Positions 13,706-59,797 of a stretch of 64,000 nucleotides of DNA are shown piece after piece; the first letter of the stretch is position 1; every line of letters begins with the position of its first letter. Source of the DNA: a phage. A program made the translations under genes and the position numbers. The notes under the pieces were generated by a model. That model worked only from the letters and a program-made list of their open reading frames with translations. It was not told the DNA's origin and did no database searches. Location: NCBI GenBank assembly GCA_025677605.1, contig GCA_025677605.1_4110.1; one strand, 5' to 3'.

Positions 13706-13707
13706 AA

Positions 13708-15506: not shown

Positions 15507-15732
15507 AGTGTTCGCTCATTTCATTCATATATTCATAGCACGATAGGTATATAATTTTTTTAATCATAAAAGACATATCAGATTTATCACTGTCCTCTGC
15601 AATACGAAAAATATAACGCATATTAGCAAAGATATAAAGAGGTATATCAGATGCTTCAGTACCAGAAAATATATCTATAATAAACCCATAACTGAAATCC
15701 GATGCTGGTGCTTGTTCAAAAGTATTGTCCAT
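15496..15732 (-). CDS. Hypothetical protein
   Basis: 78-aa ORF co-oriented and coupled with neighbours; no recognisable motif. Confidence 0.5.
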   Translation of the reverse strand: MDNTFEQAPASDFSYGFIIDIFSGTEASDIPLYIFANMRYIFRIAEDSDKSDMSFMIKKIIYLSCYEYMNEMSEHYDL

Positions 15733-15922
15733 TTTTCATCCTTATAATACCCAATAGGTACTTAATATACGTCTCAACTGAAGCCTCCTGGTATTGTGTC
15801 CCTATGTACATCAGTAACTGTAATTCCGACACGTCATTTTGATTGGAAGACCTGATTGCAGTGAACATTTGAGCACTGTATTGGTTAAGAATATCTTGCA
15901 TGTCTCTGTGTCTTATACCCAC
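15716..15922 (-). CDS. Family B-like small protein (xGTxYQ motif)
   Basis: 68 aa; YIGTQYQEASVETYIKYL. Confidence 0.6.
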   Translation of the reverse strand: MGIRHRDMQDILNQYSAQMFTAIRSSNQNDVSELQLLMYIGTQYQEASVETYIKYLLGIIRMKNGQYF

Positions 15923-16140
15923 GGTGACTCCCCCTTTCCTTGAACTTTATTCTGAATTAATTTCTGAAGGTTAAAAATGTAATCTTTCATCACAACCTCT
16001 TGATAATTAGTTCCAAGAAAATGATTCAACTTGTAATCATGATATGGTCGCCTCTTCTTCAAAAGGGGATGAAATGTATTCCATTTTGTGTAAATGTCAG
16101 AACACATCCTGTAGTACTGGTGTTTTGGAATATACTTCAT
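15913..16140 (-). CDS. Family B-like small protein
   Basis: 75 aa; FLGTNYQEVVMKDYIFNL. Confidence 0.6.
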   Translation of the reverse strand: MKYIPKHQYYRMCSDIYTKWNTFHPLLKKRRPYHDYKLNHFLGTNYQEVVMKDYIFNLQKLIQNKVQGKGESPWV

Positions 16141-16670
16141 AGTATACCATCAACGAATACATCTTCGAATTCAAATGTTGAAGTATCAATGTATAAATTA
16201 CTTCTGAAGTTCATTTGCATCTCCATATATAGACGTAGAATCATGTACATGTCATCAGTACATGACAATTGAAACATCTGCTCTTCAAATGCGTTGTAAT
16301 TGTATTTCGGGATTTCAATAGTACTACTCTTTACTGTATCCCACCAGTTCTGAATACCAAAATATAATTCAGTACTTTTTCCTGTATAAAACAAATTCAT
16401 GATTTGATTTTTTTCATTCAAGTACAAACGGTTCGTGCCGCATACGGCAATACCAATACCAATAAGTGTAAGTGCAGGAAGACCGTCACGTAATACACGA
16501 CAACGATGAAATGTACCACCCTTATAGACTGACTGTAGGTAGTATCCTTCTTTAATAATGTCTCGTGATGGAATCAAACCAGTACTGCAATCCTTAAGCA
16601 AAGGAACTATAATGTTGATTTTACGAGATAATTCCTGCATTTCCTCTGCATTGTAAGCATCAATAATCAT
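16137..16670 (-). CDS. Family A paralog, unknown function
   Basis: Track ORF 16137..16706 trimmed to MIIDAYN, because the -10 of the promoter at 16705..16732 overlaps the first ATG. Motif EEQMFQLSCT. Confidence 0.6.
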   Translation of the reverse strand: MIIDAYNAEEMQELSRKINIIVPLLKDCSTGLIPSRDIIKEGYYLQSVYKGGTFHRCRVLRDGLPALTLIGIGIAVCGTNRLYLNEKNQIMNLFYTGKSTELYFGIQNWWDTVKSSTIEIPKYNYNAFEEQMFQLSCTDDMYMILRLYMEMQMNFRSNLYIDTSTFEFEDVFVDGIL

Positions 16671-16704
16671 TTCATGTGCACCTTTTGAATTAATATTACT
16701 GTGC

Positions 16705-16732
16705 ATTGTAACACAGTACAGGCTCTTGTCAA
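16705..16732 (-). promoter_or_regulatory. sigma70-type promoter
   Basis: -35 TTGACA 16727..16732; 16 bp; -10 TACAAT 16705..16710. Confidence 0.55.
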
Positions 16733-16742
16733 TAGCATGAAC

Positions 16743-17189
16743 TCATTTTTTAGAACTAATCTTACGTAAGTACTCAAAGTAATCTAAATCAATGTATACC
16801 TGATCGTGCTTCAAGTTCATAGTACTAATAAGATAAAACAAACGTAATACATGTAGTTCTTCATGATTCAGTACTGTACTCAATTGAAAGTATCCTTCTT
16901 CATTACCTACACTTTGTATTGTCTCTCTGGTATACACTGTACGGTCATCACTACTGTCACGTACCACAATCAACTCGTCTGCAAGTGCATTATAGGAGAT
17001 GTAATTTGAATAAGAATTGAAAAATGATTGCTCTTCCGAGCACCCACCACAGAAAGTAAAATATACACACCCACCTTTCTCGTATTCAAGCTCACTACCC
17101 AATACGTTAGGATTATCATTGAAGTACTTGATTATTTGTACAATATCCTGAACCAACTTATCATTTACTTCATAATAATAAAAAAACAT
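16743..17189 (-). CDS. Family A paralog, unknown function
   Basis: 148-aa ORF; motifs EEGYFQLSTV and VYIDL. Confidence 0.7.
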   Translation of the reverse strand: MFFYYYEVNDKLVQDIVQIIKYFNDNPNVLGSELEYEKGGCVYFTFCGGCSEEQSFFNSYSNYISYNALADELIVVRDSSDDRTVYTRETIQSVGNEEGYFQLSTVLNHEELHVLRLFYLISTMNLKHDQVYIDLDYFEYLRKISSKK

Positions 17190-17194
17190 TACAA

Positions 17195-17650
17195 TTACCT
17201 CTTATATTTCTGTGTCTCTATGTATTCATAATCCATATAGAAACATGTTGAATCTATACTTTTAAAGTACCACATAATGACCAGAGTATCGAGTTCATGT
17301 TCAGTATATACAGTACTTTGCTGAAAGTAATACTCTTCACTATCCCACGGACCATCCAGTACTGAAAACGGAATTGTCAAATCTTTAGCATAATAATCAG
17401 GGTTGTATACGGTTATATCTGACCCTGGGTAGTAATTGATAAAGTAGTACAAAGGGTTATAACCACAATTATCATGATCATAATCATCACATTGCAGTAC
17501 TAATGTATCAGAACCATCAAAATCCTCAATATTCTTCGTGCAATATTCAGTCTCTGACATTTTGAAGATACCTGGAATTTCTCCACCTTTGACCTTAATC
17601 ATGTACTCATGAATCTTCTTTGCTTCTTTTAATGCACTTTGTAACGACAT
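17195..17650 (-). CDS. Family A paralog (recent triplet, copy 1)
   Basis: 151 aa; LDGPWDSEEYYFQQSTVYT; FYMDY. Confidence 0.75.
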   Translation of the reverse strand: MSLQSALKEAKKIHEYMIKVKGGEIPGIFKMSETEYCTKNIEDFDGSDTLVLQCDDYDHDNCGYNPLYYFINYYPGSDITVYNPDYYAKDLTIPFSVLDGPWDSEEYYFQQSTVYTEHELDTLVIMWYFKSIDSTCFYMDYEYIETQKYKR

Positions 17651-18093
17651 TACAAATCCCCTGTACTTAAATATTCACATGCTCCCCAGTCAAGAAAGAA
17701 TGGTTCAAAATTCAATTCCTTAAAGTACCACAACACAACCAAGGAATCAAGCATTTCTTGGTTAAAAATGAGACTCTGTTGGAAGTAATACTCTTCAGTA
17801 CCCCACGGGCCATCAAGTACCCCGAAGTCAACAGGTGAATTTGATGTGTCAAAAGTAATCTTAGTACCTGGAATATATACCATAAAACTAGTATATTGAC
17901 TACATGAAGAGTACTGTATAGTATTGTCTTTATCATGACCCATAAGTAAAATATCAGCAGAGTATGTCTTTATACCTGATAGATAATACTCATTACCAAA
18001 TGCACTTACTTTATCACCATAGAACCCACTTTTTATGTTATCGTGGAAGTGATGTATTTTGTTGGCTAGTTCTAGTGCTCTTTCTAAACTCAT
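17650..18093 (-). CDS. Family A paralog (recent triplet, copy 2)
   Basis: 147 aa; LDGPWGTEEYYFQQSLIFN; FFLDW. Confidence 0.75.
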   Translation of the reverse strand: MSLERALELANKIHHFHDNIKSGFYGDKVSAFGNEYYLSGIKTYSADILLMGHDKDNTIQYSSCSQYTSFMVYIPGTKITFDTSNSPVDFGVLDGPWGTEEYYFQQSLIFNQEMLDSLVVLWYFKELNFEPFFLDWGACEYLSTGDL

Positions 18094-18094
18094 T

Positions 18095-18577
18095 TCAACC
18101 CCTGTGAAGTTTATTAATACCGTTATCTACAGTTTTCTTTACGTATCTGTAATCGAAATAGAAGTTCTCAGAACCAATACTTTTAAAGTACCACATAATT
18201 ACAATACAATCAAGTTCTTCTTCATTGTATACAGTACTTTGTTGGAAGTAATACTCTTCACTATCCCACGGACCATCCAGTACTGCACACGGAATTATAA
18301 TGTCATCGGTATCGTGGACAGTACTGTAGATGGTAATATCTCCACCATTAACATAGACCATGTACTCATTATGCATATCAATGAAACATTCATAATCATT
18401 AGGGTCGGTATCTAGTACGCACGTTTCTGTATCTGGGAAGTCATTATCAATGAGGTTATCAGAGACATAATATTGAGTACTTGTGTCTTTGAAAATACCG
18501 TAAACTGAACCTTCTTTTGCCATATTCATGTACTCATGAATCTTCTTTGCTTCTTGTAATGCTCTTTTTAAACTCAT
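18095..18577 (-). CDS. Family A paralog (recent triplet, copy 3)
   Basis: 160 aa; LDGPWDSEEYYFQQSTVYN; FYFDY. Confidence 0.75.
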   Translation of the reverse strand: MSLKRALQEAKKIHEYMNMAKEGSVYGIFKDTSTQYYVSDNLIDNDFPDTETCVLDTDPNDYECFIDMHNEYMVYVNGGDITIYSTVHDTDDIIIPCAVLDGPWDSEEYYFQQSTVYNEEELDCIVIMWYFKSIGSENFYFDYRYVKKTVDNGINKLHRG

Positions 18578-25013: not shown

Positions 25014-25230
25014 TTATCTCATTCTGTAACTTAACAACCAAAATTTGCGTATGAATTTTTCGCTCAAGGTGCTTGATAAATTTCTGTACCATTTCTTCTT
25101 GTACTGATGTACCAAGATAAAATAACATATTAAATTCTGATAATCGCAGAGCAAAATCTTCATCGCCCCCCTGTAAACAAAAATCCCTGTACTTCGATGC
25201 GTACAAATGATGGTTTACATTTTTGTACAT
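24973..25230 (-). CDS. Family B-like small protein
   Basis: 85 aa; FYLGTSVQEEMVQKFIKHL. Confidence 0.6.
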   Translation of the reverse strand: MYKNVNHHLYASKYRDFCLQGGDEDFALRLSEFNMLFYLGTSVQEEMVQKFIKHLERKIHTQILVVKLQNEINEYNAESNNSTGS

Positions 25231-25433
25231 TTAGACTCCTTTGGTGTGCATACTATCTCTGTTCGTAAAGCCCTTATGTATGCATCAACGAATTGTGGCT
25301 GTGCTCTCGTTCCTAGATAAAATAATAAATCGAACTCTGCCATTTTAACATTAAAAGGATCTGAATCTACATTTCGAATAAACTGTCTGTACTTCAATTC
25401 ATATCCGTTAGGCATCTTCTTGTATACTATCAT
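25215..25433 (-). CDS. Family B-like small protein
   Basis: 72 aa; FYLGTRAQPQFVDAYIRAL. Confidence 0.6.
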   Translation of the reverse strand: MIVYKKMPNGYELKYRQFIRNVDSDPFNVKMAEFDLLFYLGTRAQPQFVDAYIRALRTEIVCTPKESKCTKM

Positions 25434-25743
25434 ATTCTATACAATCACCTCTTTTAATCGAATCCCAAACTTCTTTCATCCTCTTCTGTAAACTGCACAT
25501 AATATCTATATCAAACATATAAGGGTCATGAATTAGACTGTACTGAAATAATTCATCTTCCTGCATAAGAGAAAGATCCTGAAGCAACTCGTACTTACCT
25601 AAACTCCTGGGACTCAAATAAGCAAAATATTCTTTACCGTCCTCAAAAACATAATGTACTTCATGATTCATGTACTTCTTGTAATTCTCATGCGTATAAG
25701 CAAATATACAACCGGAATTAATTCGGTGAATGTTGAATTTCAT
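25408..25743 (-). CDS. Family A paralog (short form)
   Basis: 111 aa; motif QEDELFQYSLI. Confidence 0.7.
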   Translation of the reverse strand: MKFNIHRINSGCIFAYTHENYKKYMNHEVHYVFEDGKEYFAYLSPRSLGKYELLQDLSLMQEDELFQYSLIHDPYMFDIDIMCSLQKRMKEVWDSIKRGDCIEYDSIQEDA

Positions 25744-25752
25744 ATTAATCTC

Positions 25753-26079
25753 TTATACGTAAATTGGATGAATATTTTGAAGGAAATGCTTAGAAATATT
25801 CATACATGATATCATCTGCCTTTGTACTTCCTTCATCTCTTTGTATGTCAACCCAAAAGAATCATCGTATACTAACATGTACTGAAACTCTTCTTCTTCA
25901 GAGATATCAACTAGATTCGGTACTGCTATCGTATTTTCATATGATTTGATACCTTCTACCCAATAGAAACAATTATCAACTTTATTGTACTCAAATATCT
26001 TAACCCCAGGCCCACCCTGTACATTGGTCAACGCAATGAAACATGTATTCGCTCTTTTTATACAATTGATCTTACGCAT
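25753..26079 (-). CDS. Family A paralog (short form)
   Basis: Track ORF 25753..26109 trimmed to MRKINCIK (avoids overlap with the upstream gene; GGAG upstream). Motif SEEEEFQYMLV. Confidence 0.55.
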   Translation of the reverse strand: MRKINCIKRANTCFIALTNVQGGPGVKIFEYNKVDNCFYWVEGIKSYENTIAVPNLVDISEEEEFQYMLVYDDSFGLTYKEMKEVQRQMISCMNISKHFLQNIHPIYV

Positions 26080-26086
26080 TATCGCA

Positions 26087-26332
26087 TTATCTCCATCTCT
26101 CTCCGTCATCGCAAGAGTACTGGTACGTTGTCGTTAGGGTAGGAATCATGTTCGTAATCGGCATATTATTCACAATAACCGTTACGGGCATCATAACCGT
26201 CTCTTTTCTACTCTGTCCTGTCTTTGTGCAATTCATCTTGTGCATTTCATCTGAATCCAGATACGCTAATACAAACGGTGCAATCCCAAGAACAATACAC
26301 AAGACGATAAGGAAATTTAAAAATTTTAACAT
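26087..26332 (-). CDS. Small membrane-anchored protein
   Basis: 81 aa; N-terminal hydrophobic helix LKFLNFLIVLCIVLGIAPFVLAY. Confidence 0.55.
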   Translation of the reverse strand: MLKFLNFLIVLCIVLGIAPFVLAYLDSDEMHKMNCTKTGQSRKETVMMPVTVIVNNMPITNMIPTLTTTYQYSCDDGERWR

Positions 26333-26361
26333 AATCTGTACCCTATGATTAACGTTAGTGT

Positions 26362-26390
26362 ACTATAGCACTACAATAGAGTACTGTCAA
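26362..26390 (-). promoter_or_regulatory. sigma70-type promoter
   Basis: -35 TTGACA 26385..26390 (inside the 3' end of 26371..26601); 17 bp; -10 TATAGT 26362..26367. Confidence 0.55.
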
Positions 26391-26601
26391 CTGCTTTGTT
26401 CTCTATTATACTCATTAAACCCCAAATTAGATAACGAACACTATCAGCTTGATAGTTAGTACCTACTGTGCATTTTAAAATTAACTCATCTTTCAGTACT
26501 GCACGTTCTTCTTGGGATATAGGAAGAGAATTTATTTGTTTTATTTGTGGTTGTAAAGTATTAATAAGCTTGCAGTACTCTTCGAATGATAATCTTTTCA
26601 T
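26371..26601 (-). CDS. Family B small protein (LGTNYQ family)
   Basis: 76 aa; CTVGTNYQADSV. Confidence 0.65.
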   Translation of the reverse strand: MKRLSFEEYCKLINTLQPQIKQINSLPISQEERAVLKDELILKCTVGTNYQADSVRYLIWGLMSIIENKAVDSTLL

Positions 26602-26604
26602 GGT

Positions 26605-26946
26605 TCAGTACTCAATAATGTGTTCTTCATAAGCACTATTAGGCTCCTGTTTAGTTTCTTTTATTAGTACTATCATCTTATGTGCCAATGGCATAGGAAA
26701 CTCTAAATCCCATACTAATGATTCTTGAAAGTATTCTTCTTCAGATAAAGTACTTAAATCTTCAATGTCAATGTGTTCGTACATGTTATATTTGTAATCA
26801 GCAAAAGATATATAAAAACCTCTTGTAGAATCGTAAGTAATCGTGAATGGCTTACCTTTGTAGTCCATTACATCTTTACATAGACTGCATTTGATATATG
26901 TACTTGCAAATGATTTATAAACCTTAAGTTGAATATTAGTTTTCAT
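26605..26946 (-). CDS. Family A paralog (short form)
   Basis: 113 aa; motif SEEEYFQESLV. Confidence 0.7.
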   Translation of the reverse strand: MKTNIQLKVYKSFASTYIKCSLCKDVMDYKGKPFTITYDSTRGFYISFADYKYNMYEHIDIEDLSTLSEEEYFQESLVWDLEFPMPLAHKMIVLIKETKQEPNSAYEEHIIEY

Positions 26947-26948
26947 TT

Positions 26949-27170
26949 TTAAACACCTATTCCATTAGCAATAGCAGTACTTAACGCTAACAAATACTTC
27001 TGTACTGCTTGCTCTTGATGATCTGTACCTAAAAGTATATACACCCATAATTCACTGTAGTGTACATCTTCTGTATAAGGGTTGTTGTAACTTTTTGATA
27101 ATATAGCATCAAATTCAGATGCATGAACCCTTGTGAACTTAAGAATATCTTGTTGTGTTATGATTCTCAT
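26949..27170 (-). CDS. Family B small protein
   Basis: 73 aa; LLGTDHQEQAV. Confidence 0.65.
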   Translation of the reverse strand: MRIITQQDILKFTRVHASEFDAILSKSYNNPYTEDVHYSELWVYILLGTDHQEQAVQKYLLALSTAIANGIGV

Positions 27171-27382
27171 AGCTTTTCCTGTATAAGCTTCTTAAGTATT
27201 TCTATGTGTGAATTAACAGTTCTTTCTTGATGCTGTGTTCCTAAGAGTATCAGTACTATCATCTCTGAACGCAAAAGATTTTTTTCAAGTTCCCCTATAT
27301 CAGTTCTTGTATCAAGTACTAAAAATTTGTGATTATTCTTTCTGAATAGTTCTAAGTACTCTTGATTTGATATTGTCTTCAT
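27167..27382 (-). CDS. Family B small protein
   Basis: 71 aa; LLGTQHQERTV; ATGA coupling. Confidence 0.65.
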   Translation of the reverse strand: MKTISNQEYLELFRKNNHKFLVLDTRTDIGELEKNLLRSEMIVLILLGTQHQERTVNSHIEILKKLIQEKL

Positions 27383-27609
27383 AGTTTATCCCTGATGCCA
27401 TTTAAAAGTGCTCTAATATGCTCCTGTACGAATTTGTACTGACTGTCTGTTCCTAGAGTGAGTAACAATCTTAAATCTGAACTTTTGATATGATATTCTA
27501 AATCATTATTTGATTCTTGCCTCAGTTTCTGAAAGGATGAGAAGTTTGCTGCCATTAGTTCAATGTATTCTGCTGTTCCTAGGGGTTTGTGTATGTGCTG
27601 TCTGTGCAT
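27379..27609 (-). CDS. Family B small protein
   Basis: 76 aa; TLGTDSQYKFV. Confidence 0.65.
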   Translation of the reverse strand: MHRQHIHKPLGTAEYIELMAANFSSFQKLRQESNNDLEYHIKSSDLRLLLTLGTDSQYKFVQEHIRALLNGIRDKL

Positions 27610-27815
27610 TTTAATTGTATTACCCTTTTAAGTGTATTAATATAATCCACGATGATGTGTTCTTGATAGTTAGTTCCTATAGTAGCTAGAACATAGATTT
27701 CACTTATTAGAATATTTTTTTCATCCTGTGATAATTCTTCTGACCAGCTACGATGCAACTTTGGAATTAAACTACTTAATAGTTGGTTGTATTCAGTAGG
27801 TGAAATGATTTTCAT
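27579..27815 (-). CDS. Family B small protein
   Basis: 78 aa; TIGTNYQEHII. Confidence 0.65.
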   Translation of the reverse strand: MKIISPTEYNQLLSSLIPKLHRSWSEELSQDEKNILISEIYVLATIGTNYQEHIIVDYINTLKRVIQLKCTDSTYTNP

Positions 27816-28027
27816 TTACATCTTCTCAGTACTGATTCTTTAAGTTCATCGATGTAGTCCTCAACAAATTGTTCTTGTAGGTTTGTTCCGAGATGTAACA
27901 GTACTCTTAAATCTGCTCTAAGTACTTCTTTGTCATCTTCATCTATATCAGACAGTGATATGTTTAAGAATTTACTTGAATTCTCTATAAGTAATATTAC
28001 TTCATCACCTTCGCTTAAAATTTTCAT
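27812..28027 (-). CDS. Family B small protein
   Basis: 71 aa; HLGTNLQEQFV. Confidence 0.65.
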   Translation of the reverse strand: MKILSEGDEVILLIENSSKFLNISLSDIDEDDKEVLRADLRVLLHLGTNLQEQFVEDYIDELKESVLRRCK

Positions 28028-28239
28028 AATCTTTGTGTTTTCCTCGACAGTAGGTACAGGTAACGTTCAGTGCATTGTTCTTGATAGTTTGTTCCTAATA
28101 AATGAACTAATTGTTGTTCAGCTATAGAAAGCTGTTTATCTTCATAACAAGCGTATCGTTGTTTCCTATGGTATTCTTTATTGATAACATCAAGGATGAT
28201 AACACCGTATTCGTCATCTGTCAAGTGTTTCATGTGCAT
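28024..28239 (-). CDS. Family B small protein
   Basis: 71 aa; LLGTNYQEQCT. Confidence 0.65.
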   Translation of the reverse strand: MHMKHLTDDEYGVIILDVINKEYHRKQRYACYEDKQLSIAEQQLVHLLGTNYQEQCTERYLYLLSRKTQRL

Positions 28240-28471
28240 TTCTTTTTCTTATATGTTTAGTTAAAAGGTATATTAGTTTTCTTACGTACTCGTCTTGATA
28301 GTTAGTCCCTAATAGTGCAAGAAGTTTTGCTTCAACTAAAGCTAATTGTCGTTCTTCAAATGTGTGTTCCAGAATGTACTTGGGGTTTGATTTTTTAGAA
28401 ATTGCACTATTAGTCTTCATTATAATCTTATGATATTCATTGACTGTTAAGATTTTTATATATTTGGTCAT
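28214..28471 (-). CDS. Family B small protein
   Basis: 85 aa; LLGTNYQDEYV. Confidence 0.65.
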   Translation of the reverse strand: MTKYIKILTVNEYHKIIMKTNSAISKKSNPKYILEHTFEERQLALVEAKLLALLGTNYQDEYVRKLIYLLTKHIRKRNAHETLDR

Positions 28472-28691
28472 GTATCTTTTCCTGAATAGTCATTTTAAGA
28501 TATCTAAGAATCGATCGAACATAATACTCCTGTCTATCGGTTCCAAGAAAGTACAGGAGTTGTTGATATAATACTTCTGCACTCCTTGCAGCAGGGGTTT
28601 GATTTGGGTCTTTTGGAAGTTGATTTGTATGTTTTCTGGATTTAATTATTCTTTCTTTTATTTCATCGTCTGTTAAGTATATCATTTGCAT
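28437..28691 (-). CDS. Family B small protein
   Basis: Track ORF 28437..28727 trimmed to MQMIYLTDDE (compare MQMINLS in the next two paralogs); FLGTDRQEYYV. Confidence 0.6.
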   Translation of the reverse strand: MQMIYLTDDEIKERIIKSRKHTNQLPKDPNQTPAARSAEVLYQQLLYFLGTDRQEYYVRSILRYLKMTIQEKIHDQIYKNLNSQ

Positions 28692-28918
28692 TTTATGTTC
28701 CTCACATGAATTGTTTGGATTAAACATTCAATCCAAGATGTAACATATCTTGTTTGATATTGTGTGCCTAAGAGACTCTGCATTTTAAACTCTGCTTCAA
28801 GTTCATATCTCTTTTCTATCGTAAAGCTTAAATGACCATATTCTGCATCGTATCTTCTCAGTGATTCCCCAATTCTATCAAATCTTTCTGCTAAGTTGAT
28901 GTTATTCACAGTATTCAT
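28682..28918 (-). CDS. Family B small protein
   Basis: 78 aa; LLGTQYQTRYV. Confidence 0.65.
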   Translation of the reverse strand: MNTVNNINLAERFDRIGESLRRYDAEYGHLSFTIEKRYELEAEFKMQSLLGTQYQTRYVTSWIECLIQTIHVRNIKCK

Positions 28919-29178
28919 CGATCAGTACACCTCAGTGGTTGGGTCATTTGATAAAAGTACAGCTTACCTCTGATTTCCATTAACAACTCGGCTATGACGC
29001 GATTTACTTCTGTCTCTTGATAGTTTGTTCCTAAGAAGACACCCATCTTTAACTCACGATGCATAATCATCTTCTTACTGTGTTGAATTTCTTGGCTGTA
29101 ATAGATTGCATTACGTTTAGGTGAGATTTTTGCTAGTCGCTCGTTATATTCATCTTGACTTAAATTAATCATTTGCAT
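28915..29178 (-). CDS. Family B small protein
   Basis: 87 aa; FLGTNYQETEV. Confidence 0.65.
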   Translation of the reverse strand: MQMINLSQDEYNERLAKISPKRNAIYYSQEIQHSKKMIMHRELKMGVFLGTNYQETEVNRVIAELLMEIRGKLYFYQMTQPLRCTDR

Positions 29179-29393
29179 TTACTTTGGACCTCATTTTGAA
29201 GTGCATTAATGACCTTCAGTACAGCACTCGCTTGATAGTTTGTTCCTAAGACTGAAAGCATCTTGATCTCATTTACTACAATCCACTTATTTGATTGTTC
29301 AATAATGTGACTTTCATAAATGGCCTTGCGTAATGAATAAGTTTTTGCAAGACGTACATAATATTCATCTTTACTTAAATTAATCATTTGCAT
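29169..29393 (-). CDS. Family B small protein
   Basis: 74 aa; VLGTNYQASAV. Confidence 0.65.
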   Translation of the reverse strand: MQMINLSKDEYYVRLAKTYSLRKAIYESHIIEQSNKWIVVNEIKMLSVLGTNYQASAVLKVINALQNEVQSKCK

Positions 29394-29602
29394 TTACTTT
29401 TAACCTCTTTCTGGAGTGCATCAATCCATAGGTCTATATACGTTTGTTGATAGTTTGTGCCTAAGAGTGCCTCTACATAGAGTTCAGCTACCTTTGCGTG
29501 CTTTAGGTCAACAGGGATGCTCTTATCGCTTGATAACATTCTCCTTCTGCTGGTGCATGTTTTCAGAAGCCTGATGTATTCAACACCTTGTAATTTTCTC
29601 AT
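29384..29602 (-). CDS. Family B small protein
   Basis: 72 aa; LLGTNYQQTYI. Confidence 0.65.
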   Translation of the reverse strand: MRKLQGVEYIRLLKTCTSRRRMLSSDKSIPVDLKHAKVAELYVEALLGTNYQQTYIDLWIDALQKEVKSKCK

Positions 29603-29814
29603 TCTCTGGATATCACCTTGTTACGTAGACTTGCTAACCATGCGTCAGTATAGATGTTTTGATAGTTTGTCCCAATGAAGATAGATAGCTTCATTTCAGT
29701 TATTATAACACATTTGTCCACTTGTGCAATAGATTTGTTTAAAGAAATACTAGAAACTTTTGCTTGTATAGTTCGCAACAGCCTGTAATATTCATACCCA
29801 CTAAGGATTTTCAT
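29599..29814 (-). CDS. Family B small protein
   Basis: 71 aa; FIGTNYQNIYT. Confidence 0.65.
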   Translation of the reverse strand: MKILSGYEYYRLLRTIQAKVSSISLNKSIAQVDKCVIITEMKLSIFIGTNYQNIYTDAWLASLRNKVISRE

Positions 29815-30061
29815 TCTCTCGTCTCCAGACTTCCGTTCTTATATGTTGTTGATATGCTTCCAGATAGTTCTCTATTGCCTTAGAGATTGTTTGTGTATCG
29901 TCGCCCGTCATCAGTACAAGCATCTCTGCTTCACAGTGTATAAGTCTGCTAATATCATTAGTGAGTTTATCAGATACCGTATCATAGTGTTTGTGGATTA
30001 GTTTCTGAAATAGTTTAACGTACATAATGTGATTTATTCTGGATCGCATTGTCTTTTCCAT
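29801..30061 (-). CDS. Family B small protein (divergent)
   Basis: 86 aa; MTGDDTQTIS at the motif position. Confidence 0.55.
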   Translation of the reverse strand: MEKTMRSRINHIMYVKLFQKLIHKHYDTVSDKLTNDISRLIHCEAEMLVLMTGDDTQTISKAIENYLEAYQQHIRTEVWRRENENP

Positions 30062-30285
30062 TCTCTTTTGGCCTGTCGGGTTTTATACGCTACAAGGTTT
30101 CTTAGTGCATTGATATAACGATCAGTGAAGATATCTTGTTTATTAGTTCCAACGAATTTAAGAAGAAACACGTCACCATTAACTACATCATTCTCAGGGG
30201 AAGGATAAAGTTCATTGTTCTTGCGAAGGGTGTTTAGTAAAGAGAATAGGGCAGATTGATACTCAGTGCTTGATAATACTTTCAT
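30034..30285 (-). CDS. Family B small protein
   Basis: 83 aa; FVGTNKQDIFT. Confidence 0.65.
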   Translation of the reverse strand: MKVLSSTEYQSALFSLLNTLRKNNELYPSPENDVVNGDVFLLKFVGTNKQDIFTDRYINALRNLVAYKTRQAKREWKRQCDPE

Positions 30286-30509
30286 TAGTTCATTCCCTTT
30301 CTTTCTATATGTTTCATAAGAACATTAAGATACTCACCCACAAACCTATTCTGATACTGCGTCCCCATGAATTCAAACAGCCATACTTCAGCAACCATTT
30401 CTTCAATTTCATTCCAAGATAAGTACATCATAGTGAAGTAAATGTGGTTCTCTTTTTGAGATGCACTCCTTGAGCGAGCCTCGTATTCAAAGTTATTAAT
30501 GCAGTTCAT
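30285..30509 (-). CDS. Family B small protein
   Basis: 74 aa; FMGTQYQNRFV. Confidence 0.65.
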   Translation of the reverse strand: MNCINNFEYEARSRSASQKENHIYFTMMYLSWNEIEEMVAEVWLFEFMGTQYQNRFVGEYLNVLMKHIERKGMN

Positions 30510-30718
30510 AGTTTACTCCTGATGTATTTCTCAAGAGCTATTAGATACTCTTGGACATAAGATTTCTGGTGGTCAGTTCCTAAGAAGACACCCAGAAGTA
30601 ATTCTTTTTCCATAACTTTTGATAAGTATACATCATCCCTGTCTGCATATATCAGCAAGATTTCAATCTGCTTAGAATTGTAACGTTTCCTATATTGCTC
30701 TGGTGTTAATATAATCAT
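30506..30718 (-). CDS. Family B small protein
   Basis: 70 aa; FLGTDHQKSYV. Confidence 0.65.
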   Translation of the reverse strand: MIILTPEQYRKRYNSKQIEILLIYADRDDVYLSKVMEKELLLGVFLGTDHQKSYVQEYLIALEKYIRSKL

Positions 30719-30924
30719 AGTTTACTCTTTATATCTTCAATTAAAAATCCAATACAATCATTGACATACTCTTCCTGAAAGTTAGTCCCCAGTACAGCCA
30801 ACATGCGATACTCTGCTGACCTTATCGCTCTTTCAGTTTTTGGTAAGTTACGTGGTATAGTTACCATCAATTCAAGATACTCCACCATACGACTCAATGC
30901 TTGTCTTTGTGTTATAGTTTTCAT
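30715..30924 (-). CDS. Family B small protein
   Basis: 69 aa; VLGTNFQEEYV. Confidence 0.65.
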   Translation of the reverse strand: MKTITQRQALSRMVEYLELMVTIPRNLPKTERAIRSAEYRMLAVLGTNFQEEYVNDCIGFLIEDIKSKL

Positions 30925-31121
30925 AATTTACACCTCGCTCGTATGTCAGCTTTCAAAGATTCCAAATAGTGCGTTACCCACACTTCCTGATAGTTGGTTC
31001 CCATCGTAATCAACAGGTACAACTCAACTCTTTCTAAGTGCACATTGCTTTGGTAAATCCTTGCCGTGTTTTTACGTAGTATATGATGATATTCATCTTG
31101 GGTTAATGTACGCATTTTCAT
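30921..31121 (-). CDS. Family B small protein
   Basis: 66 aa; TMGTNYQEVWV. Confidence 0.65.
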   Translation of the reverse strand: MKMRTLTQDEYHHILRKNTARIYQSNVHLERVELYLLITMGTNYQEVWVTHYLESLKADIRARCKL

Positions 31122-31315
31122 AGTTTACCATTTATCTCTAAACATAACTCTTTTACATATAGTTTAACATATTCATTTTGTAAGTTAGTTCCTAAGAATA
31201 GTTCCATAACTAATTCACGTTTATAGGCATTACCACGTTTATGAGACTTATACATTATCATAGCCATGTTATTGATAAGTCTTTCGTGATGCTCTTCTTG
31301 TGTTAAAATACGCAT
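31118..31315 (-). CDS. Family B small protein (first gene of operon)
   Basis: 65 aa; FLGTNLQNEYV. Confidence 0.65.
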   Translation of the reverse strand: MRILTQEEHHERLINNMAMIMYKSHKRGNAYKRELVMELFLGTNLQNEYVKLYVKELCLEINGKL

Positions 31316-33655: not shown

Positions 33656-33734
33656 AGATAGTTACTCACCGTTATTAACTATATATTTTAGATACACCTA
33701 TGCACCCGGTGGGCTAGTTTTTGTCTATGCGTAT

Positions 33735-33767
33735 ATAATAGCAAAGGGACTGACCGGAGTCAATCCC
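33735..33767 (-). promoter_or_regulatory. R-module copy 1: terminator hairpin with embedded promoter
   Basis: Hairpin GGGACTGAC / GTCAATCCC 33746..33767; -35 TTGACT 33758..33763; 17 bp; -10 TATTAT 33735..33740; conserved core 33699..33717. Confidence 0.5.
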
Positions 33768-33785
33768 TTTTTTTATTCTTTTTTG

Positions 33786-35837: not shown

Positions 35838-35859
35838 AATTTTGTTTCCTTTTATTGGT

Positions 35860-35918
35860 GGGGAGAACTATTCTCCCCTTGATGTAAACTATTATACAGT
35901 ACTGATATACTTTGTCAA
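35860..35918 (-). promoter_or_regulatory. sigma70-type promoter plus leader hairpin
   Basis: -35 TTGACA 35913..35918; 16 bp; -10 TATAAT 35891..35896 (TG-extended); hairpin GGGGAGAA / TTCTCCCC 35860..35878. Confidence 0.7.
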
Positions 35919-35924
35919 GTACTT

Positions 35925-36329
35925 TTATTCGCCCATATAGATTAGATTATCATCGCCCACATAGGGATCGCAAACGTTGATTTCTTCGCAGTACTTAGTG
36001 AATACATCGTCATAGTGACCGATATCACGATCCCAAAAGCCAGTACCGTGACCTTCGCGAGTAAGAAAGAGATCATGACCTGCATGATTATAAGTATAAT
36101 CAGGATTATGGTGTTTTTGTACTGCTTCCATTTCATTACTAAACTTTTCAAGGAAACGAGAACATGCAATCACCGCCGCTTGATGGGCTTGCTCTGATAA
36201 TTCGTAATCTTCCAGGTAGTCGCCGTTCTCATTGTGTACAGTACTGAATTGCATAGCTTCAATGTAACCAGCGACCATAGCAGCATGATTTTTATCGTTG
36301 GCGATGTTCCGGGCTTGATTAGTAGTCAT
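35925..36329 (-). CDS. Hypothetical protein
   Basis: 134-aa ORF. Confidence 0.6.
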   Translation of the reverse strand: MTTNQARNIANDKNHAAMVAGYIEAMQFSTVHNENGDYLEDYELSEQAHQAAVIACSRFLEKFSNEMEAVQKHHNPDYTYNHAGHDLFLTREGHGTGFWDRDIGHYDDVFTKYCEEINVCDPYVGDDNLIYMGE

Positions 36330-36348
36330 GATTTTATTCCTTTGTGCT

Positions 36349-36407
36349 GGGGAGAACTATTCTCCCCTTGATGAAAACTATTATACAGTACTAAGATACT
36401 TTGTCAA
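36349..36407 (-). promoter_or_regulatory. sigma70-type promoter plus leader hairpin
   Basis: -35 TTGACA 36402..36407; 16 bp; -10 TATAAT 36380..36385; hairpin 36349..36367. Confidence 0.7.
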
Positions 36408-36410
36408 TAC

Positions 36411-36632
36411 TTAATTACGTTTAAAATGATATGTGCCTTTATCATCCTGTACGCCCCATACTGATTTACCATCAACACCAGTGAAGCCGGATTGTAATTC
36501 AATATGGAAACCATTATTATCAACTACAAAAACTTTTTTATTTTCATCCCGATAACATTGATATTCTGAATCAACATTAAAGGCCGCATCATTCAGAAGA
36601 TTGGAAGCGTAAATGCAAGTCATTGTAGTCAT
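36411..36632 (-). CDS. Hypothetical small protein
   Basis: Track ORF 36411..36707 trimmed to MTTMTCIY; the extension covers the hairpin and promoter. Confidence 0.55.
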   Translation of the reverse strand: MTTMTCIYASNLLNDAAFNVDSEYQCYRDENKKVFVVDNNGFHIELQSGFTGVDGKSVWGVQDDKGTYHFKRN

Positions 36633-36712: not shown

Positions 36713-36807
36713 GTACTTTTTAAAAATAGTTTTCAGTACTGACAATACTTATATTATAGATACACTTATGCACCCTATGGGTCAGTGAGTTATCTCTCAA
36801 TGACTAT

Positions 36808-36840
36808 ATAATAGCAAAGGGACTGACTGGAGTCAATCCC
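36808..36840 (-). promoter_or_regulatory. R-module copy 2: terminator hairpin with embedded promoter
   Basis: Hairpin 36819..36840; -35 TTGACT 36831..36836; 17 bp; -10 TATTAT 36808..36813; core 36768..36785. Confidence 0.5.
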
Positions 36841-36854
36841 TTTTTTAATCTTTT

Positions 36855-37439
36855 TTATCGTGTTATAGTTACGGCTTTTACGTCGCGTTGTTTATAGTAC
36901 TGATTCCAGATATTGCGGGTTAAACCGTAATCAAGTACTTTAATCAGGCCATTGCGATCTTGGCCTATGTTCTGCTTTCTGATATCTCTTATCGTTAGTG
37001 TTGATAAGGTATCATCAACGTGTTGTAGTGCATCAGCGAAATGGTGTTGGCGTTCAATAGTGTTACGTTTGACATTGTACTTTAATTCATTGCAAGCGTT
37101 AACGTGCTTTACACTGCCTTTGCTTGCAGTACTCAAACGATCCATAACAATAAACATATTATCAGGATCGCTTAAATGCATATGCACCTTAGCAAAGTAC
37201 TGTTTAAGGTGAGGGCGGTCATAATCTAAAAAATTCCATACCTTACATTCTGTTTCATTTTGTTCTACGCCAGCGTCACAATTAGCGACCTTAATCACTA
37301 ACCGATCATTTAAAGCGAATACGATACGGGATGATCCGGCCCCGATGATCTCCAGACCAGCCAACCGACAAGCTGTAAGGATCTCTTTGTTAGTTTCCAT
37401 TTCTGCCAGTGTACGGATGAATTTAGTATAATTACGCAT
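36855..37439 (-). CDS. Small protein kinase-like protein (Ser/Thr kinase fold)
   Basis: 194 aa. Gly-loop GAGSSRIVF; VIKVA (VAIK-like Lys); catalytic-loop-like IRDIRKQN; KVLDYG (DFG-like). Confidence 0.6.
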   Translation of the reverse strand: MRNYTKFIRTLAEMETNKEILTACRLAGLEIIGAGSSRIVFALNDRLVIKVANCDAGVEQNETECKVWNFLDYDRPHLKQYFAKVHMHLSDPDNMFIVMDRLSTASKGSVKHVNACNELKYNVKRNTIERQHHFADALQHVDDTLSTLTIRDIRKQNIGQDRNGLIKVLDYGLTRNIWNQYYKQRDVKAVTITR

Positions 37440-37459
37440 TGCATTTACTCTTTAAGATA

Positions 37460-37519
37460 GCAGGGAGGTATTCCCTGCCTTGATGTGACTATTATATGTT
37501 AGTACTAATTAGATTGCAA
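37460..37519 (-). promoter_or_regulatory. sigma70-type promoter plus leader hairpin
   Basis: -35 TTGCAA 37514..37519; 17 bp; -10 TATAAT 37491..37496; hairpin GCAGGGA / TCCCTGC 37460..37478. Confidence 0.6.
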
Positions 37520-37736
37520 CAGTTTTATTTGCAATTACAGAATGAATTGCGGTTTTACCTGATTTAGTACTGAATACATTAGCACGACCATTTTCAATAG
37601 TGATGCGGTATTCACCTTTACTATCAATGAGGTTGATAAATTCAGGAGTACTAAACCGAGTTACTTTAAAAGTCAGTACATTGAGTAGGTCCACCAGCGT
37701 AGTAGTTTCTTTGATGCGTTCTAAGATATTAATCAT
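37509..37736 (-). CDS. Hypothetical small protein
   Basis: 75-aa ORF; contains a Chi site. Confidence 0.55.
   Translation of the reverse strand: MINILERIKETTTLVDLLNVLTFKVTRFSTPEFINLIDSKGEYRITIENGRANVFSTKSGKTAIHSVIANKTVAI
37691..37698 (-). other. Chi octamer (minus strand)
   Basis: Plus strand reads CCACCAGC; inside a CDS. Confidence 0.8.
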
Positions 37737-39198: not shown

Positions 39199-39221
39199 TT
39201 TTATTTCTCTCTTTTAGTTAG

Positions 39222-39283
39222 GAGGGGAACCGTTTCCCCTCACTCGATGTAAACTATTATACAGTACTAAGATACTTTGTCAA
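39222..39283 (-). promoter_or_regulatory. sigma70-type promoter plus leader hairpin (88-bp repeat copy 1)
   Basis: -35 TTGACA 39278..39283; 16 bp; -10 TATAAT 39256..39261; hairpin 39222..39241. Confidence 0.7.
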
Positions 39284-39286
39284 TAC

Positions 39287-39469
39287 TTATTTTTTGGAAA
39301 GTTTACGCATTAATTCTACGCTTTCTTGTGAACGTTTTGCTACCTGGCAATCTGCATGGGCAGTAAACATTTTTGTATAGTCTGACGCTTTGCCACCGAA
39401 CCGAGCGGCACGTTCACGGGCACTTGGAACTAATACAATTTCTTTCTTACAGATAGTGCACTTAGCCAT
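39287..39469 (-). CDS. Hypothetical small basic protein
   Basis: 60-aa ORF; CxxC near the N-terminus. Confidence 0.5.
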   Translation of the reverse strand: MAKCTICKKEIVLVPSARERAARFGGKASDYTKMFTAHADCQVAKRSQESVELMRKLSKK

Positions 39470-40047: not shown

Positions 40048-40099
40048 AAACAATAGATACATTTATGCACCCGGTGGGCTAGTTTTTGTCTATGCATAT

Positions 40100-40132
40100 A
40101 TAATAGCAAAGGGACTGACCGGAGTCAATCCC
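40100..40132 (-). promoter_or_regulatory. R-module copy 3: terminator hairpin with embedded promoter
   Basis: Hairpin 40111..40132; -35 TTGACT 40123..40128; 17 bp; -10 TATTAT 40100..40105; core 40064..40082. Confidence 0.5.
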
Positions 40133-40147
40133 TTTTTTCAATTTATT

Positions 40148-40297
40148 TTATGCCTCGCGAGGGTTGCGATATGTGATAGCGTTCGGGTACATTTGTTTTA
40201 AGTTATTCCACGCCTGGTTAACACTGTATCCGCTGGACCGTATCAGTTGATGCATACCTTTACCCAAAAACGTAACTTCGAAAATGTATTCTTTCAT
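40148..40297 (-). CDS. Small hypothetical protein (49 aa, not in ORF track)
   Basis: Hand translation MKEYIFEVTFLGKGMHQLIR...NPREA; ATGA coupling to the upstream ORF. Confidence 0.45.
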   Translation of the reverse strand: MKEYIFEVTFLGKGMHQLIRSSGYSVNQAWNNLKQMYPNAITYRNPREA

Positions 40298-40558: not shown

Positions 40559-40578
40559 AACTGTTACCCTTATATGGT

Positions 40579-40637
40579 GGGGAGAAAACTTCTCCCCTTG
40601 ATGTAATTAATTATACAGTACTGTGATACTTTGTCAA
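40579..40637 (-). promoter_or_regulatory. sigma70-type promoter plus leader hairpin
   Basis: -35 TTGACA 40632..40637; 16 bp; -10 TATAAT 40610..40615; hairpin 40579..40597. Confidence 0.7.
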
Positions 40638-40645
40638 ATACTTTT

Positions 40646-57673: not shown

Positions 57674-57709
57674 TTGATTAAATATAGTATAATGAATAAA
57701 GGAGGAATT
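57674..57709 (+). promoter_or_regulatory. Conserved cassette leader (TATAAT box without -35, plus SD)
   Basis: TTGATTAAATATAGTATAATGAATAAAGGAGGAATT; TATAAT 57688..57693; repeated 5 times in front of the beta-propeller genes. Confidence 0.5.
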
Positions 57710-58606
57710 ATGTTACCTTTTGTTAGAATGTTTAAGTACGGGAATGTAGGTCCATTACCTGGCCCAAATGGTGGAGTACGAACACCATTTACTACAACAC
57801 CCGTACCTTCAGCACGAAATAACTTTGGTTATACGTATGATGCGGAAAGTAATATTGCTTATATATTTGGTGGTATACAGAATGCGGTGCAGACGGATAA
57901 TCAGTTATGGAGTTTTAATTTAACTACAAGAACGTGGTCACAATTAGCCAATGCACCTGTATCTACATTTGGTAGTGCGTTATGTGCTTATCAGGGAAAA
58001 ATATATTTGTTTGGTGGTTCAGGTAATAGTAGTAATAATTTTTATGTATATAATATAAGTACAAATACATGGATTCTGAACACTAACAGTATTGGGAAGC
58101 CTAGTCAACTGGCGTATAGTAAGATGATTACTGCTGGGGATAAGATATATTTGTGGGGTTCGCCTACTAATAATTCGTTATACAGTTATACTCCAAGTAC
58201 TAATACATGGTCATCATTAGGTACAAGTGATGGAACAAATAACAATGGAGGTGGTGATATGTGTACGGATGGTACTTACATATATATTACTGGTCAAGGT
58301 ACTAGTACTGCACAAAAATATCATATACAAAGTGCGGTGTGGTCTAACATAGCACCAGTTGGTGGTAATAACCCTAGTAAAATATGTTACAGTACATATG
58401 ATAAAAATATATATGCAGTGTCGTATGGTGCATTAAATTTATTGAGATACGATGCAGAAGAAGACATATGGATTCCCTTAGCGGTTAATACTACTTTGAG
58501 TAGTAGTACTGGTGCGTTATTTGGTTCTAAGAATAGTGCTGAGATATTTTATGTACTTGGTTTTGACAATGGCACTCGTGTTAATACGCAGTATGTTTTT
58601 AAATAA
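57710..58606 (+). CDS. Kelch-repeat beta-propeller protein with conserved MLPFVRM N-terminus
   Basis: Track ORF trimmed to MLPFVRMFKYGN (AAAGGAGG SD). 5-6 Kelch-like units, e.g. IYIFGG..LWSFNLTTRTW, KIYLFGG..YVYNISTNTW, KIYLWG..YSYTPSTNTW. Confidence 0.75.
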   Translation: MLPFVRMFKYGNVGPLPGPNGGVRTPFTTTPVPSARNNFGYTYDAESNIAYIFGGIQNAVQTDNQLWSFNLTTRTWSQLANAPVSTFGSALCAYQGKIYLFGGSGNSSNNFYVYNISTNTWILNTNSIGKPSQLAYSKMITAGDKIYLWGSPTNNSLYSYTPSTNTWSSLGTSDGTNNNGGGDMCTDGTYIYITGQGTSTAQKYHIQSAVWSNIAPVGGNNPSKICYSTYDKNIYAVSYGALNLLRYDAEEDIWIPLAVNTTLSSSTGALFGSKNSAEIFYVLGFDNGTRVNTQYVFK

Positions 58607-58618
58607 TTTGGAGGAATT

Positions 58619-59761
58619 ATGTTACCTTTTGTTAGAATGTTAGAGTACGGGAATATTGCACCAGAACCAAAACCTCTATTTAAAAATAGATTACAAGCAA
58701 ATTATAATACTCGTTTTTATTTGCATGTTAATGGTGACTTGTACTGGTATGGTTCATCTTCATTTGGACAAGGTGGTAATGGTTCATTACAATCATCCAC
58801 CGTATGGACCCGTGTGAATAATAATATTGAACGTTACTGGGGTGGTGTTCTTGGTTCCATTGCCATTAAGAATGATGGAACTATTTGGTTCACAGGTGCT
58901 AGTATAGTAATGCCACAAATCGGAACAAATACAAATGGGGTTTGGATTGATGTAACCCAGTACTTCACTGATTTTGGTGTCAGTGCTGATGATATTGATG
59001 GTATTGCTGTTGGGCAGAATTTGCGTGTATTTTTAAAAAATGGAAAATGGTTCTACTGTGGTGCTGGCGAAGGTGGTGTATTTGGTAACGCGTCAACAGC
59101 TAATGTCACATCGTTCAGATACAGCACTATAGAAAATGTTAAAAGTTATGGCTGTTCTTTGCTCAGTACTGGGTTAGTACTTGATGATGGCTCCTATTGG
59201 TATGCAGGAAATACTGTTGCTCCTGGTAGTACAAAAACATCAAATATATTAAGTTTTACAAAAGACAATACGATCACCAATGCTATACAAGCTGTAAATA
59301 CATACCGTACTTCATATATATTTCTTAATGATGGTTCAGTGAAGGTTGCTTCACCAAATGCATATGGTCAAGCTGGTGTAGGTACAGTATCAGCAGTACC
59401 AATGAGTACATTAATTCCCAATTTATCATTCCAAGGTGAAATAGAGTTGGTGGGTGGTTTATCCAACAACGAAGGGAATGGATGTGTTGTTAAAAATAAT
59501 AATAAGTTATATACTTGTGGTCGAAATACCTATGGTGCATGTGGTGTTAATCAAACATCCGAAAATATACTAACTTTCACCGAAATGGTTCTTGATGCAT
59601 TAGAAGGAAGACGAATTTCAGGCTTCGTAATTGATAATTTCTATTCAATGATAATTGATGAAAATAACAATTTGTATATGAGTGGTTTACCTGAACTTGG
59701 AAATGTTCCAGCCGTTAGAGTACCAACCAGAGTTCCTGATTCACTTCTACCGTGGAAATAA
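58619..59761 (+). CDS. RCC1-like repeat beta-propeller protein with MLPFVRM N-terminus
   Basis: 380 aa; GGAGG SD. Repeats such as LYWYGSSSFGQGGNG, WFYCGAGEGGVFGN, SPNAYGQAGVG, LYTCGRNTYGACGVN. Confidence 0.7.
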   Translation: MLPFVRMLEYGNIAPEPKPLFKNRLQANYNTRFYLHVNGDLYWYGSSSFGQGGNGSLQSSTVWTRVNNNIERYWGGVLGSIAIKNDGTIWFTGASIVMPQIGTNTNGVWIDVTQYFTDFGVSADDIDGIAVGQNLRVFLKNGKWFYCGAGEGGVFGNASTANVTSFRYSTIENVKSYGCSLLSTGLVLDDGSYWYAGNTVAPGSTKTSNILSFTKDNTITNAIQAVNTYRTSYIFLNDGSVKVASPNAYGQAGVGTVSAVPMSTLIPNLSFQGEIELVGGLSNNEGNGCVVKNNNKLYTCGRNTYGACGVNQTSENILTFTEMVLDALEGRRISGFVIDNFYSMIIDENNNLYMSGLPELGNVPAVRVPTRVPDSLLPWK

Positions 59762-59768
59762 TATAATA

Positions 59769-59797
59769 GCCAGTACTCTGTACTGGCTTTTCTTATT
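59769..59797 (+). terminator. Rho-independent terminator
   Basis: GCCAGTAC-TCT-GTACTGGC followed by TTTTCTTATTT. Confidence 0.75.

Follow-up and report, generated by a model that had tools for sequence, protein, structure and literature searches.

Can a protein of 194 amino acids (aa) be a protein kinase and, if so, of what kind? The question is raised by an open reading frame (ORF) located at 36855..37439, on the minus strand and with an ATG start, of the DNA stretch analysed here, the 64,000-nucleotide phage contig GCA_025677605.1_4110.1, referred to below as the window. The phage is a jumbo coliphage of Asteriusvirus type, from the PBECO4/121Q/Sharanji group. A preliminary description of the sequence had reported this ORF with the same coordinates and length, leaving its strand unstated, and had recognized in it four kinase signatures in the canonical order. 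This kinase-like interpretation is supported by a family profile, a structure model and a conserved catalytic centre, and the C-lobe of the fold is missing beyond the metal-binding motif.

Catalytic centre and fold

The motifs that carry the assignment are the following, the start of helix C being listed together with the four signatures noticed at first.

37317..37346, minus strand: Gly-rich (P-) loop IGAGSSRIVF, residues 32-41, aligned with GTGSFG of PKA
37284..37298, minus strand: strand β3 VIKVA with the ATP-binding Lys50, residues 48-52
37248..37271, minus strand: start of helix C, motif G57-x-x-Q60-N61-x-x-E64, E64 being the Lys-pairing Glu; helix 55-73 in the model
36969..36992, minus strand: catalytic loop IRDIRKQN with Asp152 and Asn157, residues 150-157, checked by hand from the DNA
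36924..36935, minus strand: metal-binding LDYG, the DFG equivalent, residues 169-172, aligned with D184-F-G of PKA

All four signatures are upheld after proper alignment, and no catalytic residue is missing: profile-profile alignment matches K50, E64, D152, N157 and D170 with K72, E91, D166, N171 and D184 of PKA. The protein hence displays the core features of the protein kinase-like (PKL) superfamily, namely the Gly-loop G33-x-G35-S-S-R, the K50-E64 pair, D152 followed by N157, and D170-Y-G172. Columns R38, K50, G57, Q60, E64, D170 and G172 do not vary in an alignment of 56 homologues that reaches down to ~20% identity, and S36, S37, A52, N61, D152 and G159 are conserved in at least 90% of the sequences; the ATP-binding Lys, the Glu that pairs with it, the catalytic Asp and the metal-binding Asp are all among these columns. 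Two signatures are the family's own: GxGSSR, with its invariant Arg (R38), and GxxQNxxE, with which helix C begins. Of the "HRD" motif, neither the His nor the Arg is conserved in the family. Among orthologues more than 90% identical, the catalytic loop occurs as two linked haplotypes, IRDIRKQN, found in the window, and IIDISKTN, which are distinguished by three of the six variable positions of the catalytic loop as well as by V109A, N113T and V/I122A.

AlphaFold2 (AF2) prediction from the 56-sequence alignment returns a confident model, with a predicted local distance difference test (pLDDT) of 93.2 and a predicted template modelling score (pTM) of 0.88, which replaces the poor model (pLDDT 48) obtained with 11 close homologues. 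From the N-terminus, the model comprises two helices, three strands bearing the Gly-loop and Lys50, the long helix C (residues 55-73), further N-lobe elements, a strand before the hinge (residues 96-100), two helices (residues 109-120 and 130-145), the catalytic loop, two short strands, the DYG motif and a last helix. This fold is bilobal, and structure searches return kinase-like fold matches. In canonical kinases, the platform on which the substrate binds and the C-lobe's hydrophobic core are both provided by the activation segment, the P+1/APE region and helices F to I. These elements (subdomains VIII-XI) are absent from the window protein, in which the 22 residues between DYG and the C-terminus form a single helix (residues 175-188). 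The homologues are almost all 180-260 aa long and have their C-termini at the same place, so that the protein is short by nature and has not been truncated. The remark of the preliminary description that the protein is much shorter than canonical kinases is thus borne out, the C-lobe beyond DYG being absent from the protein and from its homologues.

As a single sequence, the protein matches the Pfam Pkinase model with E=0.001 and 18.9 bits, under the gathering score of 31.7 (the PF07714 cut-off being 23.1), and a comparison with the PDB sequences reports protein kinases for nearly all of the best 60 matches shown, with E-values of 0.01-1. The family profile, searched against all PDB sequences, reports protein kinases for all of the best 60 of 636 matches (top E=6e-6). 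Using hhalign, the family aligns from the Gly-loop to past DFG with six canonical kinases (96.1% probability, E=3e-9), a profile-profile comparison that is to be taken as approximate. Only 11 of the 56 family members weakly match Pkinase (E<0.1), and six weakly match the ABC1 atypical-kinase model. A NCBIfam scan returns nothing useful, and PADLOC reports a weak generic kinase similarity to PD-T4-6. The profile and structure searches, to which the preliminary description had looked for a check, support a kinase fold.

It is extremely improbable that the motif matches are fortuitous and that the ORF encodes a small phage protein of an ordinary kind, with no relation to kinases. The single-sequence Pfam score below threshold (18.9 versus 31.7 bits) speaks for such a coincidence, as does PHROGs, in which the only matched entry, phrog_4301 (E=2.2e-41, residues 3-187), is labelled "unknown function". 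However, the profile and structure evidence agree throughout, and the five catalytic positions are among the most conserved columns. Chance resemblance is effectively excluded by the 56-sequence conservation, the AF2 model, the fold matches and the profile-profile alignment to canonical kinases.

The identification of a kinase at this locus is a confirmation and is not new, because orthologues already carry kinase labels in GenBank and UniProt and one of them is mentioned in a paper. The named orthologues, in Asteriusvirus and RaK2-like jumbo phages, are the following.

Sharanji: gp063, WNN14351.1
PBECO4: L7TKF0
Munch: gp046
K64-1, Muenster, Turkey3/5 and fEgEco12: orthologues given by phage name

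The orthologues of Munch and Muenster are labelled "putative protein kinase" in GenBank, that of K64-1 "protein kinase", and those of Turkey3/5 and fEgEco12 "serine/threonine-protein kinase", while the ph0011 orthologue and the UniProt entry L7TKF0 read "protein kinase domain-containing protein". The Sharanji paper describes its orthologue, WNN14351.1, as "another protein kinase ... function is unknown" (PMC11895373). Coliphage orthologues are 91-96% identical to the window protein, whereas those of Klebsiella, Salmonella, Erwinia and Xanthomonas phages share 36-39% identity with it, all having the same length and early-region position. At the DNA level, 37 such genomes match the 1.3-kb stretch around the kinase gene, with an identity of 86-95% in the five best-covering records, which span most of the stretch. 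The exact protein sequence is absent from a collection of 15 billion proteins, and a search of related loci with the close alignment returns only phage 121Q. For the window itself, the gain is therefore modest: the earlier call is right, it repeats a database annotation, and the assignment stops at "kinase-like". What the present analysis adds is the fold model, the family-wide conservation of the catalytic residues, the placement of phrog_4301 as a large, viral and functionally unassigned branch midway from canonical kinases to T7 gp0.7, and gene contexts that hint at delivery to the host.

The phrog_4301 family among other kinases

No Pfam model captures the phrog_4301 family, which distant homologues and tandem-repeat proteins also match. 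Among clusters formed at 50% identity, an exhaustive hidden Markov model (HMM) search reports 2,085 representatives with E<=0.001, of which 249 have E<=1e-10, and the literature yields no characterised "minimal" or "atypical" phage kinase belonging to the family. One distant subfamily was found at 67 loci of viral contigs (5-460 kb, IMG/VR) and at a single locus of a 185,000-species genome collection, for which the search pattern was narrower than for the viral contigs; from these counts, the family looks essentially viral.

In this distant subfamily, the kinase gene belongs to the structural module, where a head-tail adaptor-like gene lies upstream of it and the tail sheath gene downstream. 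It lies at ~5001-5650 of each locus (L014-L080) and faces a divergent module encoding DnaB, RNR, FEN, UvsX/RecA, SSB and dUTPase. Between two and six kinase copies are present at 22 of the 67 loci. Elsewhere in the family, the mini-kinase domain is embedded in a tape-measure protein of 3,248 aa (among P0121, P0110, P0021, P0022 and P0027) and in a polyvalent protein of 2,130 aa with GNAT, 2H-phosphoesterase and polyA-polymerase-type domains, and some members consist of two to six tandem mini-kinase domains in a single polypeptide. Such contexts point to proteins that would be active within the host cell as the DNA enters or shortly afterwards.

Phage kinase domains that have lost the whole C-terminal subdomain while keeping the active site, either fused in polyvalent proteins or stand-alone, were described by Iyer et al. 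2017, who predicted that they act like the T7 kinase (PMC5512222). The same loss, with the active site kept, is seen here, and the polyvalent-fused members of phrog_4301 agree with that picture (PMC5512222). The markers of the clade are a conserved His and an insert before the catalytic Asp, a Glu before strand 2 and a Gln in the last N-lobe strand (PMC5512222). Neither a conserved His nor an insert precedes D152 in the 56-sequence alignment, and the markers have no obvious match in phrog_4301, the clade being compared by its description only.

With the canonical Hanks kinases (PF00069/PF07714), the window protein shares the Gly-loop, the Lys-Glu pair, D-x4-N and D(F/Y)G, as well as their spacing (138 residues from the Gly-loop to DYG). 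Unlike them, it is devoid of subdomains VIII-XI and of a conserved HRD His/Arg, and stays below the Pfam gathering thresholds. Between the window protein and other minimal kinase-fold proteins (Bud32/PRPK, Rio1/2, NleH/OspG, Legionella Lpg2603 and the archaeal ArkI), no specific relationship in sequence was found. All of these retain more of the C-lobe, and several depend on a partner (Kae1, E2~Ub, IP6) or have RNA as their substrate (ArkI). The hallmarks of ArkI, an HGQ catalytic loop, a DFE metal loop and a C-terminal YKR helix, are not found in the window protein.

The preliminary description had drawn an analogy with the early kinase gp0.7 of phage T7 (T7K). T7K is experimentally a highly active early anti-defence kinase, with a DPV motif in place of DFG and a domain ending shortly after it (PMC13645617). 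Against an alignment of nine gp0.7 kinase domains, from T7 out to RSB1 and a jumbo-phage homologue, hhalign reports a match of the phrog_4301 family (95.1% probability, E=3e-8) in which 144 columns are aligned, starting with the Gly-loop and reaching the metal-binding Asp; the single T7K sequence gave a probability of 0.7%, and the comparison is informative only with the nine-sequence alignment. T7K itself aligns with the canonical kinases with a probability of only 25%, the same set of six sequences being used and the value again approximate. As the family matches the canonical kinases as well as it matches T7K, the homology is at the superfamily level, no specific sister relationship being apparent, and the mini-kinase family would sit between the canonical kinases and T7K, about equally far from each.

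The two phage kinases are alike in being products of known or presumed early genes, with an N-terminal helical extension and a domain that ends soon after the metal-binding motif, and in their succession of motifs (xGxG..., VIKV, D-x4-N, then Asp). They differ in that T7K (phrog_2828, phrog_15752) possesses a C-terminal shut-off/DNA-binding domain and the DPV motif, D213-P214 being invariant in the T7K alignment where the window protein has DYG. Furthermore, T7K and its jumbo-phage homologue match phrog_2828, phrog_15752 and phrog_18305, which the window protein does not. Membership of the gp0.7 family was therefore rejected on account of the different PHROG, DYG instead of DPV, and the absence of the shut-off domain. 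The analogy gains some support as homology, but the protein is no closer to gp0.7 than to ordinary kinases.

Sister phages carry, in addition, a separate and true T7K homologue ~37 kb from the mini-kinase gene.

Salmonella phage SD-6_S16, 156324-156965 (1381-2022 of locus L005): T7K-like kinase of 213 aa, phrog_15752, motif TDPL, labelled "hypothetical protein" in the record
Sharanji, WNN14432.1: T7K-like kinase

Within the 64-kb window, phmmer with T7K reports no T7K-like gene, nor is there any paralogue of the mini-kinase gene. The proposal that the mini-kinase could be the enzymatic hub of host takeover found no evidence: it is one of two kinases in the sister phages, the other being closer to the enzyme of proven broad activity, and nothing singles it out for such a role.

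Proposed function and its alternatives

On balance, the gene probably encodes a C-lobe-less kinase that is active, is expressed early, has proteins of the host and/or the phage as its substrates and serves host reprogramming or anti-defence. In this enzyme, an N-terminal extension of two helices would precede a complete N-lobe, to be followed by helices D and E, the catalytic loop and the Mg-binding DYG; a single terminal helix would then stand in the place that canonical kinases give to the activation segment and to helices F to I. Its gene, one of a block of small genes located in or next to the terminal repeat, would be transcribed by the host RNA polymerase from a promoter of sigma-70 type, and the product would be made early in infection. 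With ATP as the donor of the gamma-phosphate, it would modify Ser, Thr or Tyr residues in proteins of the host and/or the phage, with a substrate specificity that may be loose or provided by a partner, so as to reprogram the host or disarm its defences. We infer the catalytic activity, the protein substrates and the biological role; Ser/Thr/Tyr protein substrates are proposed because T7 gp0.7 is the other C-lobe-less phage kinase of known activity.

The elements preceding the gene bear on its timing.

37491..37519, minus strand: sigma-70-like promoter TTGCAA-17-TATAAT, from a consensus scan (10/12 matches), a pattern match only
37459..37479, minus strand: hairpin of the 5' untranslated region (5'-UTR), GGCAGGGA-AUACC-UCCCUGCU, 8 bp, -14 kcal/mol, z=-2.4, between the promoter and the Shine-Dalgarno sequence
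37448-37452, minus strand: Shine-Dalgarno sequence AAGAG, 8 nt before the ATG

The promoter and the hairpin that the preliminary description had attributed to the gene are thus both found, as pattern-level matches only. The gene itself stands within a run of ~130 minus-strand genes which, from ~24 kb on, are mostly small (median 75 aa). In phages vB_Ec-M-J and Muenster, it lies inside the annotated terminal repeat, and in the related phage CBB a region of short ORFs rich in RpoD promoters is the presumed early region (PMC5259590). Early expression is plausible, as suggested by the sigma-70-type promoters and by the terminal-repeat position in related phages.

Several points weigh against the proposal of an early protein kinase. 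Since the peptide-binding platform (activation segment, P+1 loop, helices F and G) is missing, the structure does not reveal a protein substrate. With its pI of 9.2, the protein is basic and might just as well be suited to nucleic acids. Some distant homologues lack N157. The early timing is read from consensus matches only. The literature yields no biochemical or genetic study of any family member. Lastly, the depletion of Ser/Thr/Tyr reported for T7-like phages with a hyper-promiscuous kinase is not observed in the small minus-strand proteins of 24.1-57.5 kb, in which these residues represent 18% as compared with 19% in those encoded on the minus strand of the first 24.1 kb; the test is a weak one and, being dominated by base composition, uninformative.

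Some of these points would fit an active kinase-fold phosphotransferase of non-protein substrates, such as RNA (the 2'-OH of tRNA, as for ArkI), a nucleotide or a small molecule (APH, choline or ABC1-type), an alternative that we consider rather unlikely. A precedent is ArkI, a small enzyme of the ePK superfamily without subdomain VIII that phosphorylates tRNA (PMC9095486). The basic character of the window protein is shared by 40 of the 56 homologues, six family members weakly match the ABC1 model, and the APH and SAICAR-synthetase folds score equal to protein kinases in the structure search. However, sequence profiles rank protein kinases first, the Asp at the HRD position is kept here and replaced in ArkI, and the protein has no helical substrate subdomain of the APH or choline-kinase type. 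The fusion of one family member to 2H phosphoesterase and polyA-polymerase/CCA-type domains also points to RNA, but it is weak evidence, since polyvalent proteins combine unrelated effectors (PMC5512222).

The absence of the entire substrate-binding C-lobe could also indicate a pseudokinase or nucleotide-binding regulator that binds ATP or a host partner and transfers no phosphate, or a protein whose partner supplies the C-lobe functions, as in OspG-E2~ubiquitin and Bud32-Kae1. The unconserved HRD His and Arg, the two catalytic-loop haplotypes of near-identical orthologues and the variability of Asn157 in distant members are compatible with this explanation, and the 75-aa gene upstream keeps its place in phages EJP2 and Munch. 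On the other side, even very divergent members all keep the Lys, the Glu and the metal-binding Asp, and at least 90% of the sequences have the catalytic Asp, which is the pattern of active enzymes. T7K, whose domain ends just after the metal-binding motif, is extremely active alone (PMC13645617), and general regional synteny explains the conservation of the neighbour. A pseudokinase or partner-completed protein therefore appears improbable.

If the active protein kinase proposed here is assumed, its family has a wider bearing. The work on T7K has lately revealed phage kinases as powerful weapons of general use against host defences (PMC13645617), and phrog_4301 would represent a second, much more widespread family. 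With a full catalytic centre in fewer than 200 residues, it would also provide a handy model of a minimal kinase and of substrate choice without a C-lobe. Extrapolating further, the family may be a very large, almost exclusively viral set of autonomous "half kinases" standing between canonical kinases and T7 gp0.7, delivered to the host as early-gene products or with the virion, and acting either in broad anti-defence like T7K or on a non-protein target (host tRNA or other RNA); this view is a conjecture that we hold rather doubtful. The virion route is suggested by the tape-measure and polyvalent fusions and by the distant members encoded between the head-tail adaptor and tail sheath genes. 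If the family does comprise such broad anti-defence half kinases, promiscuous phosphorylation would be far commoner than the ~200 reported T7K homologues suggest.

Repeats and neighbouring genes

Downstream of the kinase gene, the "R module" noted in the preliminary description is indeed present: it is a 96-nt repeat that overlaps the stop codon of the ORF (TAA, 36855-36857) and occurs in exactly three copies in the window.

36762..36857, minus strand: R module, 96-nt repeat overlapping the stop codon, with a 12-bp hairpin at 36816-36843; fold z=-4.6
36836..36808, minus strand: second promoter-like site TTGACT-17-TATTAT, overlapping the stem of the R-module hairpin

The three copies lie at 33689-33784, 36762-36857 and 40054-40149, with spacings of 3073 and 3292 nt; three copies of the exact core are found in the window, none being expected by chance. 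Each copy contains a perfect 12-bp hairpin (AAAGGGATTGACT...AGTCAGTCCCTTT), followed by a T-run on the plus strand, the minus strand having a U-rich tail. The stem includes a -35-like TTGACT, and two more small hairpins follow. The 12-bp hairpins were scored as terminator-like on the minus strand by the scan. An Rfam scan of the whole window reports no matches, which indicates that the repeat is not a known RNA. The repeat may combine a terminator and a promoter that bound early transcription units of ~3 kb, or it may be a small RNA. The R module probably ends the transcription unit that holds the kinase gene, which looks to be the last gene of a unit of ~3 kb.

A different module precedes most of the small minus-strand genes between 33000 and 42000, with 13 copies in 9 kb. 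In it, a consensus sigma-70 promoter, TTGACA-16/17-TATAAT (several with 12/12 matches), is combined with a hairpin of the 5'-UTR that is rich in G (GGGGAGAA-loop-TTCTCCCC) and with a Shine-Dalgarno sequence. Examples are found at the following positions.

35843-35926: promoter/hairpin module
36332-36415: promoter/hairpin module
39208-39291: promoter/hairpin module
40562-40645: promoter/hairpin module

The 75-aa gene located directly upstream of the kinase gene, at 37509-37736, is the same neighbour in EJP2 (E=9e-8) and Munch (E=8e-6), the kinases of which are 36-38% identical to that of the window. A conserved functional partner encoded beside the gene was considered and found unconvincing, the six related jumbo phages showing general synteny together with a weakly conserved 75-aa gene.

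Several gene families are repeated elsewhere in the window. The first 24 kb form a tight array of 150-215-aa ORFs, and a seven-member paralogue family of minus-strand genes encoding 150-210 aa spans 8680-18577. Nineteen paralogous genes of ~70 aa, mostly in head-to-tail minus-strand arrays, are distributed over 15716-16140 and 25215-31315. Thirteen plus-strand genes were called in the window, the only long ones being six paralogues at 57692-64000 that encode Ser/Thr/Tyr-rich (27%) proteins of ~300-400 aa.

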